A DNA stretch of 64,000 nucleotides, taken from Escherichia phage AV112. A program made the translations under genes and the position numbers. How positions within the stretch are numbered: the first letter of the stretch is position 1; the number at the start of each line of letters is the position of its first letter. The stretch lies in sequence record OR352942.1; one strand, 5' to 3'. Positions 2,732 through 60,289 of the stretch are shown here, one piece after another. Under the pieces are notes generated by a model that ran no database searches, had not been told where the DNA came from, and worked only from the letters and a program-made list of their open reading frames with translations.

Positions 2732-3723
2732 TATTGAACCTTATTAATATAAGTTAACAACTCTTTAGTTTGTTCCCAACTGATGCACGCATCGGTAACG
2801 GAAACGCCATAGGACATATTATCAGAAATTTTTTGATTTCCTTCATGTAGGAATGATTCTATCATAATTCCTTTGACCAAATCATTAGCTGCTAAATTTT
2901 TACCAATACCAATTTGATTGCTATAATACCCATCAGCGTTTGCATGGCTACAGTCAACCATTACATAATGATTCAGACCTAATGCACTTGCTTTGTTAGA
3001 AGCTTCTTGAATATCAGAAGAATGATAGTTCGGGCCATTAGTCCCGCCACGCAATACGATATGCGTATTCTGATTACCTTCAGCTTCAACAATGCCTACA
3101 GTACCATCGACATCCATACCCATATACCGATGAGGCCAGGCGGCACTATACATCGCGTCTGTAGCTACTTTAATAGAACCATTGGTTGCGTTCTTGAAGC
3201 CTACGCACATCGGTAGACCTGAAGCAATTTCACGATGTGTCTGACTTTCAGTCGTACGGGCGCCAATAGCAACCCATGAGAAAATACCAGAAAGATACTT
3301 AATCGTGAATGGGTCTAATACTTCAGTTGCTAATGGAAGTCCCATACGTAGAAGTTTACGACACAATGTTCGTGCAACTATAAGACCGTGGTTCATATCA
3401 AAACTTCCGTCAAGATATGGATCATTTACAAGACCTTTCCAACCTACGGTAGTTCGAGGCTTTTCAAAATAAACGCGCATCACTAACAGAACATTAGGAA
3501 GACGAGTTTGAAGTTCAGCCAGACGTTTGCCGTATTCAACAGCAGCAATAGGGTCATGAATTGAACAAGGACCTACAACAATAAGTTTGCGTGGGTCTTC
3601 ACCGTTCATAATCGAATTAACTTGTTCGCGATGAGAAGCCACTTGTGATGCGTAAGCTTCCGACAAAGGAATAATCTCAGCCAGTTCTTTTGGAGAAATA
3701 AGTTTTCTGATGACAGGTAACAT
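2731..3723 (-). CDS. 3-deoxy-7-phosphoheptulonate (DAHP) synthase, class I AroG/AroF-like
   Basis: VVGPCSIHD, MRVYFEKPRTTVGWKGL, AIGARTTESQTHRE, GFKN, HIVLRGG and ESFLHEGNQ motifs line up with E. coli AroG incl. metal ligands. Confidence 0.85.
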   Translation of the reverse strand: MLPVIRKLISPKELAEIIPLSEAYASQVASHREQVNSIMNGEDPRKLIVVGPCSIHDPIAAVEYGKRLAELQTRLPNVLLVMRVYFEKPRTTVGWKGLVNDPYLDGSFDMNHGLIVARTLCRKLLRMGLPLATEVLDPFTIKYLSGIFSWVAIGARTTESQTHREIASGLPMCVGFKNATNGSIKVATDAMYSAAWPHRYMGMDVDGTVGIVEAEGNQNTHIVLRGGTNGPNYHSSDIQEASNKASALGLNHYVMVDCSHANADGYYSNQIGIGKNLAANDLVKGIMIESFLHEGNQKISDNMSYGVSVTDACISWEQTKELLTYINKVQ

Positions 3724-17652: not shown

Positions 17653-18559
17653 TAATTACACTTGTTAATTTAGAAAGACCAGATTTTACAAAGTATGAAT
17701 AAATCTTGCCTTTAGGTTGTGGTTTATATGAGTTATAATACTCTATAATGGTTGAAGCAATATTATCAGGGATATAATCAAAATCAATGAGAACCAAATT
17801 TTCTTGATACCGTTTATATTCTTCTGCACTTAATAATACTTCAGCTTGAGAACGGTCATTGGCAATTGCTTCAATAATCGTTGTTTTCATGCTCGGAGTT
17901 CGTTCACCATCAACTCTGGTAAACCAGAAGTCGCCGCGAACTCGAACAGATGCAACGCCGTCTTTACGGTCACCTTTAAGAATTTTAGTCATGCAATCAA
18001 TTTCAGCAGAACCATTCTTAATTTTAACCCATTTTTTCTGTGGTGGCGACCACTGTTTAACGTTAGGATATTTGTGTAATTGTGTAAAGTCGCCATCTGA
18101 TGCAACAATACATACCTTATGTCCAGCTAATGACAAATATTTAGTTAATACACCGATATGGTCATCCGCTTCATATTTGTCGATATCCATTACAACGTAT
18201 GGCATGTATTTCTTAATCTCATCAACAACTTGACGGAGTGCAGTAAAATATCCTTCCCAATCCCACTTTGAAGCTTCACGATCGGTTTTACGATTTTTCT
18301 TGTAATAGTAAGCAAAGTCACGACGCCAATAACCTGAAGTAGCATTATCCATACACAATACAAATTTTGTATAGCCTTGCTTACGGAACATCACTACGTT
18401 TTTACGAATTGAATTCAAGATTACATGGCGAACCATCGGAACAGTAATTTTATCACCGTCTTCAAAGTTGTTTAATGCAGCTGCTAATGCAATGTTACTA
18501 AAGTCGGCAAGTGCAATACCTTCTTTGTAATCTTCATCCAACATCATTTCTAAATCCAT
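17642..18559 (-). CDS. rnh: RNase H (5'-3' exonuclease, FEN family)
   Basis: 305 aa; acidic metal-binding clusters; synteny. Confidence 0.85.
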   Translation of the reverse strand: MDLEMMLDEDYKEGIALADFSNIALAAALNNFEDGDKITVPMVRHVILNSIRKNVVMFRKQGYTKFVLCMDNATSGYWRRDFAYYYKKNRKTDREASKWDWEGYFTALRQVVDEIKKYMPYVVMDIDKYEADDHIGVLTKYLSLAGHKVCIVASDGDFTQLHKYPNVKQWSPPQKKWVKIKNGSAEIDCMTKILKGDRKDGVASVRVRGDFWFTRVDGERTPSMKTTIIEAIANDRSQAEVLLSAEEYKRYQENLVLIDFDYIPDNIASTIIEYYNSYKPQPKGKIYSYFVKSGLSKLTSVINEF

Positions 18560-28148: not shown

Positions 28149-28808
28149 ATGGCAACACCAAAAGTATCATTTTCGCCTAGTGATATTCTATTTGGGTTGC
28201 TAGATCGTATTTTCAAAGATAACGCTACTGGAAAGGTTTTAATGTCTCGAGTAGCGGTAATTATTCTTTTGTTCCTAATGGCACTAATATGGTACAAAGG
28301 AAGTATTTTGCTGGATTATTACGTAAGAGCTAAGTATGATACTTATACTGAAATAATCCAAAAAGAACGAGCTTTACGTTTTGAATCTGCGGCTCTAGAA
28401 CAACTGCAAATAGTTCATATCTCATCTGGTGCAGATTTTAGTGCTGTGTATTCTTTCAGACCTAAAAACTTAAATTATTTTGTCGACCTTATAGCTTATG
28501 AAGGCAAACTACCTAGCACAATTTCTGAAAAGTCCCTTGGCGGATTCCCGGTGGATAAAACGGCCAATGAATATATAATTCATTTAAGTGGCCGTCATTT
28601 CTCATCTAAATCAGAATTTGCATTTTTGCCTACAAAATCTAAGACTGCCGAACTTTCTTATATGTATAGTTGTCCATACTTTAATTTGGATAACATCTAT
28701 GCCGGAACTGTGACGATGTATTGGTATAAGGGGAGTAATATACTTGAGGAAGACCGCTTAGCGGCTATATGCAACCAAGCGGTCCGAATACTAGGAAGGG
28801 CTAAATAA
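28149..28808 (+). CDS. t: holin T
   Basis: 219 aa, single N-terminal TM, near-colinear with T4 T. Confidence 0.9.
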   Translation: MATPKVSFSPSDILFGLLDRIFKDNATGKVLMSRVAVIILLFLMALIWYKGSILLDYYVRAKYDTYTEIIQKERALRFESAALEQLQIVHISSGADFSAVYSFRPKNLNYFVDLIAYEGKLPSTISEKSLGGFPVDKTANEYIIHLSGRHFSSKSEFAFLPTKSKTAELSYMYSCPYFNLDNIYAGTVTMYWYKGSNILEEDRLAAICNQAVRILGRAK

Positions 28809-40192: not shown

Positions 40193-42010
40193 TTAGGACA
40201 TCCATTCTTTACGAAGTTCTGAATCGTCACCCAACAACATTTCAAAGAGTTCTTTCCAATTTTCAGGAAGTTTAACTACGTCGTACACAGGGTTCTGAAT
40301 CATTTCACGATATTCTGACTTTTCAAGGGAGCCTAATCCCTTGATGTATCGAATACTATGCTTAGGAAGTGTATCTTTAGCTTCTTCATACTCAGCTACA
40401 GTATAAAACCATTTTTGAGTTTTGCCAATTTGTGCAATAATTACAGGCGTTTTAACAAAGCGAATACGTCCTTGTTCAAACAATTCAGGCCAATTACTAA
40501 AGAAAGCAAGCAAAGCCGGATAAATACTTCCAAGACCATCATGATCGGCATCGGTCATAATTGCAATATTACGATAGTTCGTATTCTCTGCCTTTTCACC
40601 AAGAATAAGACCTGTGATAGCACAGATATCAAAGAGCTCTTTGTTCTTCATCATATCGGCATATGACATACCCCAGCTATTCATCACCTTACCACGTAAT
40701 GGGAATCCGCCGTGTAGTTCACGGTCACGAACATCAATGAGATAACCAATTGCCGAATCACCTTCTGTTAAAAACAATGTCGTATCTGCATCTTTACCAC
40801 ATTGGTTAGCTTTAATATGCTTATGAACCTTAGCTTTAGTTGCCTTTTTAGCTGCTTTAGTTTCTGCAGCCTTTTCTGCCGCCAATTTACGAGCTAATGC
40901 TGCTTCAACAATAGGCATAATCAAGGCTTCGTTTTTAAGAAGTGCCTGAGCAATTTTCTTAGCATCTAATTGGATATGATTACGAATATCACCATACGTT
41001 GACGTTAAACGTTCTTTAGTCTGAGAATCAAAACGCATGTTGCTCATGTCTCTAATAAACATCAACATTGTGAGGCATTCTTTAACACGAGCTTTAGTGA
41101 CTTCAATACCCTTATATTTCTTTTTAATGCCAGGCAAAAGATGTTCGCAAATATCATCCATTACACATTCAACATGATGACCACCATTTTTAGTATGGAT
41201 GTTATTCACATAAGTTAAATGACGGAAGCCATCTGGTGATGTTGTGAATGCTATAGAGACTTTATCATTTTCTTGAATGATGTTATCTTCACCAAATTGT
41301 TTAGCAAATCGTTTAAAATTACCATCAACCTTTTTACCATTAAATGTGAACTTGATATCAGGATAAACGACTGCCAATGTTTGAAGACGGTCTAAAGTAA
41401 TATCTAAATAAATTTGAGATAAATTATGCTCTTCAAATGAAGAGAAATCAGGAGTGAAGATTACTTTAGTGCCTTTACCTTTAGATTTCTTAGAAGACCA
41501 TGATTTGTTTTCCATTCCGTTTGAACAGTTAACAGTGATTTCATTTTCGCCATCTGACGTGATGCCTGTAAACAACGTAGAGAAGATATTAGTTAAACTA
41601 CTCCCGACGCCGTTCATACCACCAGTCTTGCGTTCAGAGTCGTCACCAAAGTTACCGCCAGCCTTTGGAATAGTCCAGGCTGCTACAGGCCCAGGAATCT
41701 GTTCACCATTTTGGTCGGTGACCATTGCTTGAGGAATACCACGTCCGTTATCTTCCACTGAGACTTGATTATTTTTAATTTGCACATCAATTTTATTTGC
41801 AAACTTAAATGATGTACGAATAGCTTCATCAACCGAGTTGTCAATAATCTCATCGATTAATTTAACCAGACCAGGAACATATTCAACTTGTTGATATTTA
41901 CCAAACAAAAAACGCTCGTGGGCTTCTTTGGCCGAAGAACCAATATACATGCCACTACGTTTCTTAATATGTTCTACATCTGACAATACCTTAATTTCAT
42001 TTTTAATCAT
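40193..42010 (-). CDS. 39: gp39 DNA topoisomerase II large subunit, unsplit (39+60 fused)
   Basis: 605 aa GyrB-like ATPase + TOPRIM in one ORF. Confidence 0.9.
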   Translation of the reverse strand: MIKNEIKVLSDVEHIKKRSGMYIGSSAKEAHERFLFGKYQQVEYVPGLVKLIDEIIDNSVDEAIRTSFKFANKIDVQIKNNQVSVEDNGRGIPQAMVTDQNGEQIPGPVAAWTIPKAGGNFGDDSERKTGGMNGVGSSLTNIFSTLFTGITSDGENEITVNCSNGMENKSWSSKKSKGKGTKVIFTPDFSSFEEHNLSQIYLDITLDRLQTLAVVYPDIKFTFNGKKVDGNFKRFAKQFGEDNIIQENDKVSIAFTTSPDGFRHLTYVNNIHTKNGGHHVECVMDDICEHLLPGIKKKYKGIEVTKARVKECLTMLMFIRDMSNMRFDSQTKERLTSTYGDIRNHIQLDAKKIAQALLKNEALIMPIVEAALARKLAAEKAAETKAAKKATKAKVHKHIKANQCGKDADTTLFLTEGDSAIGYLIDVRDRELHGGFPLRGKVMNSWGMSYADMMKNKELFDICAITGLILGEKAENTNYRNIAIMTDADHDGLGSIYPALLAFFSNWPELFEQGRIRFVKTPVIIAQIGKTQKWFYTVAEYEEAKDTLPKHSIRYIKGLGSLEKSEYREMIQNPVYDVVKLPENWKELFEMLLGDDSELRKEWMS

Positions 42011-51508: not shown

Positions 51509-51745
51509 TTAACCACTTACTGGTGTAGGGGTAAACATTGCAGCATTCTTAGTTTTCCAATCAGCTGCATCAGAAACTACAGTAGAATATGCTGCCTTTT
51601 CTGATGGAAAGATTTGGTAATGAGAATCTGCAATCCGATGTTCGTTTGAATAAATCTCAAACGGCACAGAAACTTCCATACCTTTAACTTCTTTGCCTTC
51701 ACCAGCAGGATGCGTAAAGGTTTTGATGTTTACATAACCACCCAT
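51509..51745 (-). CDS. soc: small outer capsid protein Soc
   Basis: 78 aa, matches T4 Soc (GYVNIKTF, YQ.FPSEKAAYSTV). Confidence 0.85.
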   Translation of the reverse strand: MGGYVNIKTFTHPAGEGKEVKGMEVSVPFEIYSNEHRIADSHYQIFPSEKAAYSTVVSDAADWKTKNAAMFTPTPVSG

Positions 51746-51776
51746 AATTAACTCCTTTGTTGTTTAATTACAGGTG

Positions 51777-51784
51777 TATTTATA
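51777..51784 (-). promoter_or_regulatory. late promoter TATAAATA for soc
   Basis: exact TATAAATA on minus strand 32 nt upstream of soc ATG. Confidence 0.65.
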
Positions 51785-51790
51785 ACTTAA

Positions 51791-52312
51791 TCAGTAACCA
51801 TTATCCTGGCGTTCAAAGTTGTGTTGGTTTTTCAAGTAGTAAAGTTTAAAGATTTCTTCAGCGGAAAGACCCAGACCTTGGAACATGTTCAGGACAAAGT
51901 GGAGGATATCAATCATCTCGAATTTAATTTCAAGCTGGTCTTCAGGAGACAGTTCATCGATACGACGATTTCGATATTCAGCATGTTGAGCTTTCCAAGG
52001 CTTCCATACAGAGCTAGCGGCTTTTTCACCATTGCTCATACCACCAAGTGAAGTCAACAGTTCACGGAATTCATCATCAATATAATCTTTCTGATTACGC
52101 AGCCAATCAACAACATCGCCAGCAGTGGCTAATTCATCAGGATGTTTGTTATGTTCAGGCTTGTCATTTGCCAGACGAACCTGTAAAGATTTCTGCATAT
52201 CAAGCATTACCTGCAGAGGGTCTTTATCTTCGTGAATCAGAGCATTAAAATAAGCTTCTTCTGCTTTATCAACACCAGAAATAAGTTGTGAACATTCGTT
52301 AAAGTGTGCCAT
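51791..52312 (-). CDS. 56: gp56 dCTPase/dUTPase (MazG-like)
   Basis: start at ATG 52312 (MAHFNEC) with SD; about 173 aa. Confidence 0.8.
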   Translation of the reverse strand: MAHFNECSQLISGVDKAEEAYFNALIHEDKDPLQVMLDMQKSLQVRLANDKPEHNKHPDELATAGDVVDWLRNQKDYIDDEFRELLTSLGGMSNGEKAASSVWKPWKAQHAEYRNRRIDELSPEDQLEIKFEMIDILHFVLNMFQGLGLSAEEIFKLYYLKNQHNFERQDNGY

Positions 52313-52402
52313 TATTTTTCCTTTCAATTCAGTATAAGAGAGTTTAATTCTAACATTAATTTTATAAAGCGTAATAAATAATAAGGTAACTAAGGAGATA
52401 TT

Positions 52403-52600
52403 ATGTTTAAACTTCCATCGTTAATCAACGCTATTAAAGGCAATAAAAAGAAAACTGCTATCGCTGCAATAGTTGTAGGTGGCATTATTTCATGGAACTT
52501 CGGGATTGCGCCATTGTTAGTTGCCCATGGTGTTATGGTTCCTTCTGTTCCATTGGATACTGTAGTTGATTTGGCCTTTGCTATTATAGGGCTTGTCTAA
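52403..52600 (+). CDS. small hydrophobic protein (65 aa) on opposite strand
   Basis: AAGGAG SD 5 nt before ATG; two hydrophobic segments; stop overlaps gene 61 stop. Confidence 0.4.
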   Translation: MFKLPSLINAIKGNKKKTAIAAIVVGGIISWNFGIAPLLVAHGVMVPSVPLDTVVDLAFAIIGLV

Positions 52601-53619
52601 ATCTTAGAATAACGAGATAATCTCATTTTAGCATGCAACCCACTTGAAATATTCTGTTTCATATATTCTAAAATTTCTTGTGGTGTTGCATTTTCTTTCA
52701 TTACCATATCATTCACATCCTTTGATCTCCACGGAGCTCGGTCCCAGAACATGACACGTTCGCCTGCATCAACTAATCGCTTCATGCGAGCTATAGTATC
52801 CGGATGCCTAGGTTCATTATCCATTACCCATACCCGACGTTCTTTAAATGGTACAACATCTAAATCTATTGAGCCGCCTGTAATAGCGATTGCATTGGGT
52901 ATGAATAAACTATCAATAGGGCCTTCCATTACCCAGACGTCTCCTTCCTTAACACGTTCAACACCATAAATTTTTGTTGCAGACTCAAACGCTTTAATAG
53001 TGATATATTTCTGAGGAGCATCTTTACGAAGTGCACGTCCTTGGAATGACTCAGCCTTCCCGTCTTTATTAAAAATAGGAATCACTAAACGTGGTTCGGG
53101 AATCTCTTTTTTATATGTACCGGGTTGAATCTTGTTGACCAATTTAGGCCATTCTAATGTGAACCATAATCTGTTCCATGATTCTTTAGGAATGCATCGA
53201 GACTTAACATATTTCACAATAGGATGCTCTTCAGGCAGCTTGTCCAGACGAGAACAAGACGGCAAAGAATTTATAGTCTTTTTCTCTGGTTCTGGTTTAT
53301 GTTCAGGAACCTTTTCAATCTTTGGTTCCATTCTAGCTTTTTCTTTACGAACTTCCATTAGATATTCGCGATAAAGCTCTTCATCATACTCTTTTAAGTA
53401 TCCGGAAATTGTATTGTGGTATTGACAATTATAGCAATGTACATTACCAGGAGTACCGCCATAATACCATCCGCGAGCTTTCATTGCATCTGTCTGGGAG
53501 TCGCCACAAACTGGACATCGAAACGTTAATTTAAATGTGCTTGAATTATTGATTTGTCTAAAACGAGGTAGGTGAGAAAACGCACGATAAGCAAATTCAT
53601 TATCTATCCATTCAGCCAT
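52597..53619 (-). CDS. 61: gp61 DNA primase
   Basis: 340 aa; N-terminal zinc ribbon CPVCGDS...CYNC, TOPRIM core. Confidence 0.9.
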   Translation of the reverse strand: MAEWIDNEFAYRAFSHLPRFRQINNSSTFKLTFRCPVCGDSQTDAMKARGWYYGGTPGNVHCYNCQYHNTISGYLKEYDEELYREYLMEVRKEKARMEPKIEKVPEHKPEPEKKTINSLPSCSRLDKLPEEHPIVKYVKSRCIPKESWNRLWFTLEWPKLVNKIQPGTYKKEIPEPRLVIPIFNKDGKAESFQGRALRKDAPQKYITIKAFESATKIYGVERVKEGDVWVMEGPIDSLFIPNAIAITGGSIDLDVVPFKERRVWVMDNEPRHPDTIARMKRLVDAGERVMFWDRAPWRSKDVNDMVMKENATPQEILEYMKQNISSGLHAKMRLSRYSKI

Positions 53620-53658
53620 AGTATTCTCCAGAGGCCTTAAATTAATAAGGCCATCATA

Positions 53659-54153
53659 TCACAACTTATTAATATTTACTTTAATTCGCTTTCTTTTCTT
53701 GGAAGGAATTTGTTCTGGACCTTTATTTACGACTGCACCTGTAGTTGTTCCTGATGCAATAGCTTGAGGACTACCGCCTGAATCACCAGCAACCATATCC
53801 TCAAATAAAGGGAGTTCTTTAAATATTTCTTTCTGTTGTTCTTCCGTAATGTTATAGCGTGAAGCTACAGCACTCCAGGCAGACATCATTGAGGCCATTC
53901 CATTAAGACCTGGAACAGTGCTCATCATTCGCTTCATTGAACGAACTGACGCATGAAAAGGTGTATACGCAGCTTTCTCTTCGGGAGTAGAAGGACGTTT
54001 AAGAACACTTCCACGTTCATCGATGATTTTGGCTTCGTATGCTTTCCATTCGGTAAAAGGTTTTTGCATTAGTCGAATAAACTTATATGCATAAACAGAA
54101 TCTATTGCAGTGTTAATAATACCCATAGGTACCTCCTGAGTATATTTAATCAA
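53659..54153 (-). CDS. hypothetical protein (164 aa)
   Basis: ORF upstream of gene 61. Confidence 0.5.
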   Translation of the reverse strand: MIKYTQEVPMGIINTAIDSVYAYKFIRLMQKPFTEWKAYEAKIIDERGSVLKRPSTPEEKAAYTPFHASVRSMKRMMSTVPGLNGMASMMSAWSAVASRYNITEEQQKEIFKELPLFEDMVAGDSGGSPQAIASGTTTGAVVNKGPEQIPSKKRKRIKVNINKL

Positions 54154-55349: not shown

Positions 55350-55353
55350 AACT

Positions 55354-55602
55354 TTATTCTTTTTCGCGAATAATAATTACTTGTTGAGGCTGCTGGGCAG
55401 ATTTCTTTTCGGCAACGATAGACCAAATTAAAGTTCCAATCCAACCAATCATCGTCCAGTTAAAGAGTAAAGATATAAAGAAGATTGCTGTTGTGCTTTT
55501 TGTGCCACGAATAAGTGCGATTACCCAAGGCAACATGTAAATGATGATTGAACCAATACCTGCGATTAAAACTGCTACTGAACTAGCTACGAATAATTCC
55601 AT
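55354..55602 (-). CDS. small inner-membrane protein (82 aa, two TM segments)
   Basis: two hydrophobic helices; possibly immunity-type membrane protein. Confidence 0.45.
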   Translation of the reverse strand: MELFVASSVAVLIAGIGSIIIYMLPWVIALIRGTKSTTAIFFISLLFNWTMIGWIGTLIWSIVAEKKSAQQPQQVIIIREKE

Positions 55603-55663
55603 GTTAATTTCCTCTTGATTTGTTATGTTTATAATATCTTGTTTTAACTTTGGTGTAAACCAA

Positions 55664-56032
55664 TTAATTAAATTTGTTTAAACGTTCAATACACTGGACG
55701 TAGTTATTTGCGATTTGTTTCTGGGTGGGCTCTTTACCAGTTGTTTCAACATAGCGAATGAATGCGATTTCAGTAGCCTGTAGACAATGTTCTTTAACGC
55801 GTTGTTCTTTTGACAATGCTACAGTATCAGAGTCACGATAACGTTGAGCATGGGCATCAGCTTGAATCATTCGATTACCTACAGTAACCGGGTCTTCCAC
55901 TTCAACTTTAGGTTGGTCATACTGTTTAACATTCGGATTGTAAATCAGTTGGCCAACGTTATTAGGGATAAAGCCATGGGCACCACATCCGGTTAATCCA
56001 AATACCATTGCTAAAGCGATTAATTTTTTCAT
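55664..56032 (-). CDS. predicted lipoprotein (122 aa)
   Basis: signal peptide with lipobox LTGC. Confidence 0.5.
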   Translation of the reverse strand: MKKLIALAMVFGLTGCGAHGFIPNNVGQLIYNPNVKQYDQPKVEVEDPVTVGNRMIQADAHAQRYRDSDTVALSKEQRVKEHCLQATEIAFIRYVETTGKEPTQKQIANNYVQCIERLNKFN

Positions 56033-56060
56033 TTCAATTTCCTCTGTAGTTGATAGAAAG

Positions 56061-59151: not shown

Positions 59152-60289
59152 TTTCTATATCTGCTGCAGACGGAGCATCAGAAGTTTTAACCGGAACTTT
59201 AGTTGTTGCTTTGCAATTAATAAGGTCGTTAACAGCGTCATCAACTTCTTTAATAGAAGAGATAGCACCTAGTTTATATTTAGTTTCAATTGCATCTCGG
59301 AAAGGTTTGTGTTTAAACAACGGTCCCCAGAATTCTACACAATCAGTAGCTTTAGCACGCCATGATTTTTCTTCACGAATCATTTCGCCTGTTTCTTCGT
59401 CAAGGAATTCACGAGCATACCACCCGGCTTTAGGCTTAACTACAAAACCAATTTCAGTTGCCATTTCTAACAAGCCACTGAACGGGTCGATACCACCATC
59501 AAAATTAACTGTGATTGGGAAAGTAGATTTTTCTTTAACGGTGCGAGATTTTTCTGCTTTCAACGTGAAGTCATAACCGGTCAATTCTGTACCTTCTTTA
59601 ACCTGACGTTTAGAGATAAAGAATACAGTGTTAGCAGAGTAAAGAATACCTGTACCACCACCCATAATCTCTTTAGGATACAATCCGCCGATTTCCATTG
59701 CTGTATGGTTAATTGCAACACACGGAATATCTTTAATAGTCAGATAAGGAGTCACAATGCGGAACAGAGATTTAAGTGCCTTAGCACGAGACATATCACC
59801 TACAACTTTCTCGTTCAATGCATCTTCGGTTTCTTTCTTAGATGCAGTATTACCGATTGAATCGATAAAGATAATAACTTTATCACCGCGTTCAATCGCG
59901 TCAAGCTGATTAGTCATATCAACTTTAAGTTGTTCGACAGATTGAATCGGAGTATGAACTACACGGTCTAAATCAACACCCATTGAACGAAAATAAGATT
60001 CTGAAGCACCAAATTCTGAATCATAGAACAAACAAATTGCATCTTTATATTTCTTCATATATGCTGCAACCATGGTCAGTCCAAACAACGTTTTAAAGTG
60101 TTTAGAAGGAGCAGCAAAAATAGTTAAGCCTGATTGCAACCCAGCATTCAGTGCACCACCTAATGCAATATTCAACATCGGAATACGAGTAGGGACTTCA
60201 TCACGATTATTAAACAGCTTAGACTTAGTCAAGTCTGCAGTCATTTTAGAAGTAGAAGCTTTAATCAGACGAGATTTTAAATCAGACAT
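59117..60289 (-). CDS. uvsX: UvsX recombinase (RecA-like)
   Basis: 390 aa; near-colinear with T4 UvsX; acidic C-terminus. Confidence 0.92.
   Translation of the reverse strand: MSDLKSRLIKASTSKMTADLTKSKLFNNRDEVPTRIPMLNIALGGALNAGLQSGLTIFAAPSKHFKTLFGLTMVAAYMKKYKDAICLFYDSEFGASESYFRSMGVDLDRVVHTPIQSVEQLKVDMTNQLDAIERGDKVIIFIDSIGNTASKKETEDALNEKVVGDMSRAKALKSLFRIVTPYLTIKDIPCVAINHTAMEIGGLYPKEIMGGGTGILYSANTVFFISKRQVKEGTELTGYDFTLKAEKSRTVKEKSTFPITVNFDGGIDPFSGLLEMATEIGFVVKPKAGWYAREFLDEETGEMIREEKSWRAKATDCVEFWGPLFKHKPFRDAIETKYKLGAISSIKEVDDAVNDLINCKATTKVPVKTSDAPSAADIENDLDEMEDFDE

Follow-up and report, generated by a model that had tools for sequence, protein, structure and literature searches.

The gene analyzed here is not new as an open reading frame (ORF): in RB69 and in hundreds of T-even-type phage records it is already known as a hypothetical protein, it has a PHROG of its own, and the entries RB69ORF029w, RB32ORF030w, VR7ORF033w and AR1_033 represent the same gene in the same position and orientation beside the primase gene 61, with nothing that differs in kind. 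Among the systems that have been characterized in these phages, soc of T4 resembles it in gene layout, as it is likewise a solitary late-type gene in the early block, with [T/A]ATAAATA about 30 nt before an AAGGAG-led ATG; however, soc lies on the early-gene strand and encodes a soluble capsid decoration protein, whereas our ORF is found on the other strand, and its product is a membrane protein. At the level of the product, RI of T4 is also a small T-even envelope protein with a weakly hydrophobic N-terminal membrane segment, and in both proteins this segment ends with LSP-x-I-x-A, followed by a small polar stretch. This is a likeness of shape only, as in RI, 70 residues form a globular periplasmic domain to which the holin T binds, whereas the ORF product has only some 24 residues beyond the membrane. 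The phage holins (classes I–III, including T of T4) are small inner-membrane proteins that are produced late, as is predicted for the ORF product, but the latter has a single transmembrane segment and lacks a charged cytoplasmic tail at its C-terminus, a match to a holin family, and a link to an endolysin gene. Imm and Sp of T4, finally, also represent small proteins of the envelope in these phages, and their genes lie only a few kb away, but these are early genes on the minus strand, and the ORF product has no sequence relationship to them and the opposite predicted timing.

We analyzed the gene in a stretch of 64,000 nucleotides from Escherichia phage AV112 (OR352942.1), in the following termed the window (Table 1). 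A sequence-only reading had described here a plus-strand ORF of 65 codons that begins with ATG 5 nt after an AAGGAG and converges with gene 61 with overlapping stops, and all of this is present; the translation is MFKLPSLINAIKGNKKKTAIAAIVVGGIISWNFGIAPLLVAHGVMVPSVPLDTVVDLAFAIIGLV. The stop codon TAA covers positions 52598-52600, and the stop codon of gene 61 lies at 52597-52599, where the plus strand reads CTA, i.e., TAG on the minus strand. The two genes thus converge, and their coordinates overlap by 4 nt. Gene 61 (minus strand, 52597-53619) encodes the primase of 340 residues, and the dCTPase gene 56 (minus strand, 51791-52312) lies upstream of the ORF. Since the coordinates of gene 56 end at 52312 and those of gene 61 begin at 52597, the ORF and its leader occupy the entire gap between the two genes. 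Within 51700-53700, no terminator-like site was found on either strand, and thus none between the ORF and gene 61, and only a single minus-strand ORF, of 31 residues, overlaps the positions of the gene.

Table 1. Features of the ORF in the AV112 window, and its T4 homologue.
Feature	Position	Strand	Remarks
Late-promoter-like motif AATAAATA	52373..52380	+	T-to-A(-13) variant of the gp55-dependent TATAAATA box
Shine-Dalgarno sequence AAGGAG	52392..52397	+	followed by 5 nt (atatt) and the ATG
Coding sequence, 65 residues plus stop	52403..52600	+	ATG start; member of the RB69ORF029w / RB32ORF030w / PHROG 2024 family
Basic N-terminal segment MFKLPSLINAIKGNKKK, codons 1-17	52403..52453	+	net charge +5; predicted cytoplasmic amphipathic helix
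Transmembrane helix TAIAAIVVGGIISWNFGIAPLLVA, codons 18-41	52454..52525	+	24 uncharged residues; predicted by hydropathy and AlphaFold2
Predicted periplasmic tail, codons 42-65	52526..52597	+	loop HGVMVPSVP, then helix LDTVVDLAFAII
Convergent stop overlap CTAA	52597..52600	both	TAA (+) and TAG (-, primase gene 61)
T4 homologue ORF	NC_000866 17738-17938	+	AAGGAGG 6 nt before the ATG; unannotated

The length of the ORF by itself could have arisen by chance in DNA as AT-rich as this, as there are six other plus-strand ORFs of 66-80 residues near by, all of them within minus-strand genes. What distinguishes the ORF is that it fills an intergenic gap, that it has a Shine-Dalgarno sequence, and that it is conserved. 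The claim that it is the only plus-strand ORF with a strong Shine-Dalgarno sequence in the early region was nearly exact: when all plus-strand starts in the region 28900-64000 that are followed by at least 40 codons were scanned by script, just one other was detected, 59757-59909. This second ORF encodes a low-complexity product of 50 residues antisense within uvsX, with AAGGAG 5 nt before its ATG and no late box near by, and it is probably a chance occurrence. Two further observations concern the neighbors. On the minus strand at 52371-52347, a MotA-box-like cGCTTTA (52371-52365) and a TAGAAT (52352-52347) are separated by a 12-nt spacer, about 35 nt before the ATG of gene 56 (52312) and back to back with the late box of the plus strand; as judged by eye, gene 56 could have a middle promoter here, in the same 75-nt spacer. 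In the interval between genes 61 and 41 (about 55350-56035, minus strand), the AV113 annotation contains two coding sequences labeled as "immunity" directly beside sp (spackle), whereas in T4, imm is located elsewhere.

Over the 2 kb that were compared (51700-53700), the window is 100% identical to the Mosigvirus Escherichia phage AV113 and shares 98% identity with many other Mosigvirus genomes. In AV113, the ORF is annotated as the coding sequence of a hypothetical protein (WPK34765.1), which is the sole plus-strand one among the 64 coding sequences after the holin gene, over about 35 kb. RB69ORF029w, as annotated in RB69, the type Mosigvirus, differs at three residues from the window protein, and the latter matches PHROG 2024, a family of unknown function, with E = 2.6e-27 (residues 1-65 on positions 1-65 of the 65 in the profile). 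That no T4 gene is known in this orientation at this position is correct with respect to the reference annotation: the 309-nt gap between dam and 61 (NC_000866 17626-17934, corresponding to 3127-3435 in our T4 locus L003) contains no annotated feature in NC_000866, AF158101 or the original K03113 entry. However, the T4 sequence holds a homologue of 66 residues with 55% identity to the window protein (tblastn), whose stop overlaps the gene 61 stop by 4 nt, as in the window. The comparison with T4 and RB69 thus revealed the gene at this locus in both phages, annotated in RB69 and unannotated in T4; it is also unannotated in JS98 (EF469154) and SP18. The only terminator-like structure detected here in T4 is a minus-strand hairpin, ATGGCATTAACAAGTGCCAT with a subsequent T-run, within codons 6-12 of the ORF (L003 3254-3273); it could end gene 61 transcripts ahead of dam, and it has no counterpart in the window.

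The gene is widely distributed. With tblastn, 692-749 phage records were found at E-value limits of 1e-3 to 1e-2, nearly all with full-length matches, and more divergent queries detected about 169 further records from Klebsiella, Salmonella, Citrobacter and Enterobacter phages. As representatives, we examined Tequatrovirus (T4, AR1), Mosigvirus (AV113, RB69), Gaprivervirus (VR7), Dhakavirus (JS98), Kanagawavirus (Kosakonia phage 305), Gelderlandvirus (UTK0003), the JD18-type Klebsiella phage Roth34, and two metagenomic lineages. Every one of them has an ORF of 63-69 residues on the opposite strand that converges with gene 61, and its neighbor on the far side is gene 56, dam or another inserted gene. 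The syntenic ORFs of VR7, JS98, Kosakonia phage 305, Roth34 and the Salmonella phage UTK0003 match PHROG 2024 with E = 1e-15 to 1e-28. The junction with gene 61 varies, from a 14-nt overlap (locus L013) to gaps of 9 nt (the metagenomic locus L016), 18 nt (Roth34) and 206 nt (VR7). The slot between genes 56 and 61 has also received insertions, namely dam on the 56 side in T4, and a homing endonuclease and another ORF in Kosakonia phage 305, and VR7 has, like T4, segF between 56 and soc, which is outside the slot. Whatever has been inserted, the small ORF stays adjacent to gene 61 in the genomes compared, and this position is kept in at least seven genera of the Tevenvirinae. A lack of conservation in related phages, which would have spoken against a gene, is thereby ruled out. 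In six-frame translations, a local HMM search detected neither a homologue within the 16 kb examined of each of RB49 and CC31 nor a paralogue elsewhere in the window. In RB49 (Krischvirus), genes 56 and 61 are just 14 nt apart (L023 2009-2024), and in CC31 (Karamvirus), the slot contains a minus-strand gene of 94 residues instead (L024 7821-8105). As the gene is missing from these two phages, it must be dispensable in some relatives. Among 1.84 billion proteins, a profile search detected just five representatives of 41-72 residues, all of this family or truncated copies of it, and thus no relative with known function was found.

The pattern of substitutions indicates selection on the amino-acid sequence. 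The pairwise Nei-Gojobori dN/dS was 0.06-0.2 in the pairs with estimable dS, and between genera, 45-57% of the residues are retained while synonymous sites are saturated (pS 0.72-0.85). Substitutions are most frequent at third, less frequent at first, and least frequent at second codon positions, with 38, 21 and 11 differences, respectively, between the window and L016. A Shine-Dalgarno sequence (AAGGAGG, AGGAGG or GGAGG) with a spacer of 4-8 nt precedes the start in all 12 lineages compared. W31, N32, P37, G43, P47 and an acidic residue at position 52 are invariant across genera, and closer genera additionally keep KGNKK and LDT-x-VD-x-AFA-xx-GL. Since dN/dS is low with saturated synonymous sites, the ORF codes for a protein, and as judged from these comparisons, it is a genuine gene of the T-even phage group that is under purifying selection. 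A spurious ORF or a purely regulatory spacer was considered as well and is rejected by dN/dS and the codon-position pattern. The initial proposal of a real small membrane-protein gene on the opposite strand is thus upheld by conservation, purifying selection and the kept Shine-Dalgarno sequence.

As to the time of expression, the upstream region of the gene is informative. The motif AATAAATA begins 30 nt before the ATG, and in the window, genes 34, 36, t and soc have a TATAAATA box 38, 32, 28 and 32 nt ahead of their starts, respectively, so that the geometry of the motif matches that of these boxes. In 10 of 12 sequences of different lineages, NATAAATA is present 20-30 nt before the ATG, despite diverged flanks. 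The form AATAAATA occurs in AV113, RB69, AR1, L013 and JS98, the less common variant GATAAATA in T4 and L009, CATAAATA in VR7 and Roth34, and a perfect TATAAATA in Kosakonia phage 305; an exact ATAAATA before the ATG is missing in the other two, the metagenomic L016 and the Gelderlandvirus UTK0003. On both strands of the 35-kb early region (28900-64000), there are only three ATAAATA sites, with about 15 expected from first-order Markov simulations (100 runs, minimum 8), and two of the three are those before soc and before our ORF. The third, GATAAATA at 40519 (+), lies antisense within the large topoisomerase gene (40193-42010), with no obvious ORF downstream. No sigma-70-like promoter was found upstream of the ORF on the plus strand. 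In T4, 32 of 50 late promoters have the exact TATAAATA, and A(-13) is the commonest variant, with 9 of 50; early and middle transcripts all have the same polarity, and transcription from either strand is confined to the late class (Geiduschek and Kassavetis review, PMC2988020). As the ORF lies on the strand that is not used by early and middle transcription in T4, and in view of the motif, the gene is most likely transcribed late in infection, and its assignment to the late class, with a conserved gp55-type promoter of its own, is very probable. The promoter AATAAATA would then drive a late-only mRNA with a short leader and a strong Shine-Dalgarno sequence, and with the box at -13 to -6, we infer a transcript start near 52386 and a leader of about 17 nt. 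As no terminator follows the ORF, the late RNA probably runs on antisense into gene 61.

The product is predicted to be a bitopic inner-membrane protein of 65 residues with the N-terminus inside and the C-terminus outside (N-in/C-out). In all nine lineages in which it was assessed, four to six Lys/Arg residues precede the hydrophobic span, and the net charge of the C-terminal 22-25 residues is -2 to 0 in all lineages; with a basic N-terminus and an acidic or neutral C-terminus, the positive-inside rule predicts the N-in/C-out topology. AlphaFold2, run with a 12-sequence alignment, returned a model with a mean pLDDT of 79, in which helices comprise residues 3-13, 15-41 (pLDDT 86-88) and 51-62, and a loop comprises residues 42-50. 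The transmembrane span contains the family-invariant motif W-N-[FYL]-x3-P, and the tail contains G-x3-P-x-[VIM]-x-[LMI]-[DE], which is conserved across the genera compared. The C-terminal helix LDTVVDLAFAII is amphipathic, with the conserved Asp52 and Asp56, and as it has only 12 residues, it is too short to cross the bilayer. Of the two hydrophobic segments that had been assigned to the protein by the sequence-only reading, one is thus the transmembrane helix (from about residue 15 or 18 to 41), whereas the second would be an interfacial helix with two conserved Asp residues. The best-conserved residues (W-N-F, Pro, Gly, Pro, Asp), which include polar and helix-breaking ones, are concentrated in the outer half of the membrane span and in the membrane-adjacent segment, and this distribution argues for the binding of a partner rather than for pore formation; the protein may thus bind another envelope protein.

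Taken together, we put the probability at nearly 0.8 that the ORF is a genuine late T-even gene that encodes a bitopic inner-membrane protein. The basic N-terminus would reside in the cytoplasm and a single helix would cross the membrane; the remaining residues, about 24, would form a tail on the periplasmic side, with a short acidic amphipathic helix at its end. The protein would bind and tune another envelope protein late in infection.

An improbable alternative is that the product is a secreted pre-peptide, in which the N-terminus and the span represent a long signal peptide or a signal-anchor-release domain that is cleaved or released. A cut after a small-x-small site just before H/N/Q-G would then release HGVMVPSVPLDTVVDLAFAIIGLV, an active hydrophobic peptide with a length of about 24 residues, on the periplasmic side. 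In agreement with this, the span ends with A-I-A, A-V-A, A-L-A or A-A-S in most lineages (L-V-A in the window and A-S-T in Roth34), a conserved Pro occupies position -5 relative to the putative cleavage site, and H/N/Q/Y-G follows the site. Ala, Gly, Ser and Thr also make up a large part of the span (10 of its 24 residues in the window), and among the closer genera, no block is as well conserved as the last 24 residues. However, the n-region (17 residues) and the h-region (about 19-24 residues) are far longer than those of ordinary Sec signal peptides, the invariant W-N-[FYL] in the hydrophobic span would be unusual for a disposable signal peptide, and AlphaFold2 predicts one continuous helix across the putative cleavage site.

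Superinfection exclusion must be established within minutes. A role as exclusion or immunity effector that blocks the entry of secondary phage DNA, as Imm and Sp do, had been proposed for the small protein, and the gene indeed lies within 3 kb of sp and of two imm-like genes, and the family is confined to T-even-type phages. We found no support for this role, as the gene has a late-promoter motif and no sigma-70-like promoter, lies on the wrong strand for early or middle expression, and as its product has no Pfam match at E <= 10, including the Imm and Spackle families, whereas a neighboring gene at related loci does match PF25676 (T4_Spackle). Judged from these sequence features, superinfection exclusion is unlikely, and we regard it as very improbable that it explains the gene.

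The second function that had been proposed, that of a holin or an antiholin, was likewise left without support, and there is only a very slight chance that the protein forms or gates lesions in the membrane as a true holin, pinholin or antiholin. It is true that the protein is small, membrane-embedded and probably late, and that one UniRef entry of the family is named "Holin", but there is no visible basis for this name, and the other named members that we read are called hypothetical or uncharacterized. No lysis family was among the PHROG, Pfam and NCBIfam matches: the sole PHROG was 2024, and NCBIfam gave no match at all. A PDB sequence profile search gave no informative match, and a Foldseek search of the AlphaFold2 model against viral predicted structures returned only family members, which include an entry labeled "Holin", and an uncharacterized 63-residue Enterobacter phage protein. 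Moreover, with its single transmembrane segment, the protein lacks the charged hydrophilic C-terminal tail in the cytoplasm that is a holin feature, as its charged end is the N-terminus, and the phage already encodes the holin T in the window (28149-28808). Homology to RI of T4 was considered and rejected, as BLASTP gave E = 0.31 over 6 residues, and the likeness of FILSPVAIA to FVLSPSIEA is not significant. A canonical holin role is therefore unlikely on sequence grounds.

It is extremely improbable that the RNA is the product, i.e., that a late antisense transcript into gene 61 shuts down early-gene expression and the ORF is incidental: although the genes are convergent with overlapping stops and no terminator-like site on either strand, and although both strands of T4 are transcribed at different times at several sites (PMC2988020), the selection on amino acids with saturated synonymous sites and the Shine-Dalgarno sequence in every lineage argue against it, and the overlap with gene 61 is not kept, as seen with VR7 and Roth34. 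An additional antisense effect on gene 61 alongside the protein is possible, but an RNA role by itself cannot explain the selection on amino acids.

For the late bitopic inner-membrane protein that we favor, a function can only be guessed: it might modulate a late event at the inner membrane, foremost the timing of lysis or the control of the holin, or else the membrane-bound assembly of heads. A lysis-related role, taken on its own, is a tentative suggestion. Rapid-lysis (r) mutants of T4 are not known to map to the spot between dam and 61, and an essential role in lysis inhibition is therefore less likely. It is also conceivable, though doubtful, that in T4 itself the 66-residue product of the overlooked, probably late gene at 17738-17938, or a 24-residue peptide released from it, acts as a hitherto unrecognized component of a classic late process. 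Such a product would target the RI-controlled timing of lysis by the holin T or the membrane-bound initiation of proheads, and it would do so on the periplasmic side of the inner membrane, via the conserved W-N...P...G...P...D segment.

Full-text literature on T4 Ribo-seq and small proteins, on T4 transcription start sites, and on the ORF names of the family yielded nothing on this gene. What our analysis adds is the protein-level selection across at least seven genera, the probable assignment to the late class, and the recognition of a gap in the T4 reference annotation. As the reference gene list of T4 does not contain the gene, transcriptomic, proteomic and CRISPRi screens of T4 that use this list would not report it. 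As matters stand, it is an ordinary uncharacterized accessory gene of the T-even phages; if a role in lysis timing or membrane-bound assembly holds true, however, it would represent a new component of a textbook system.
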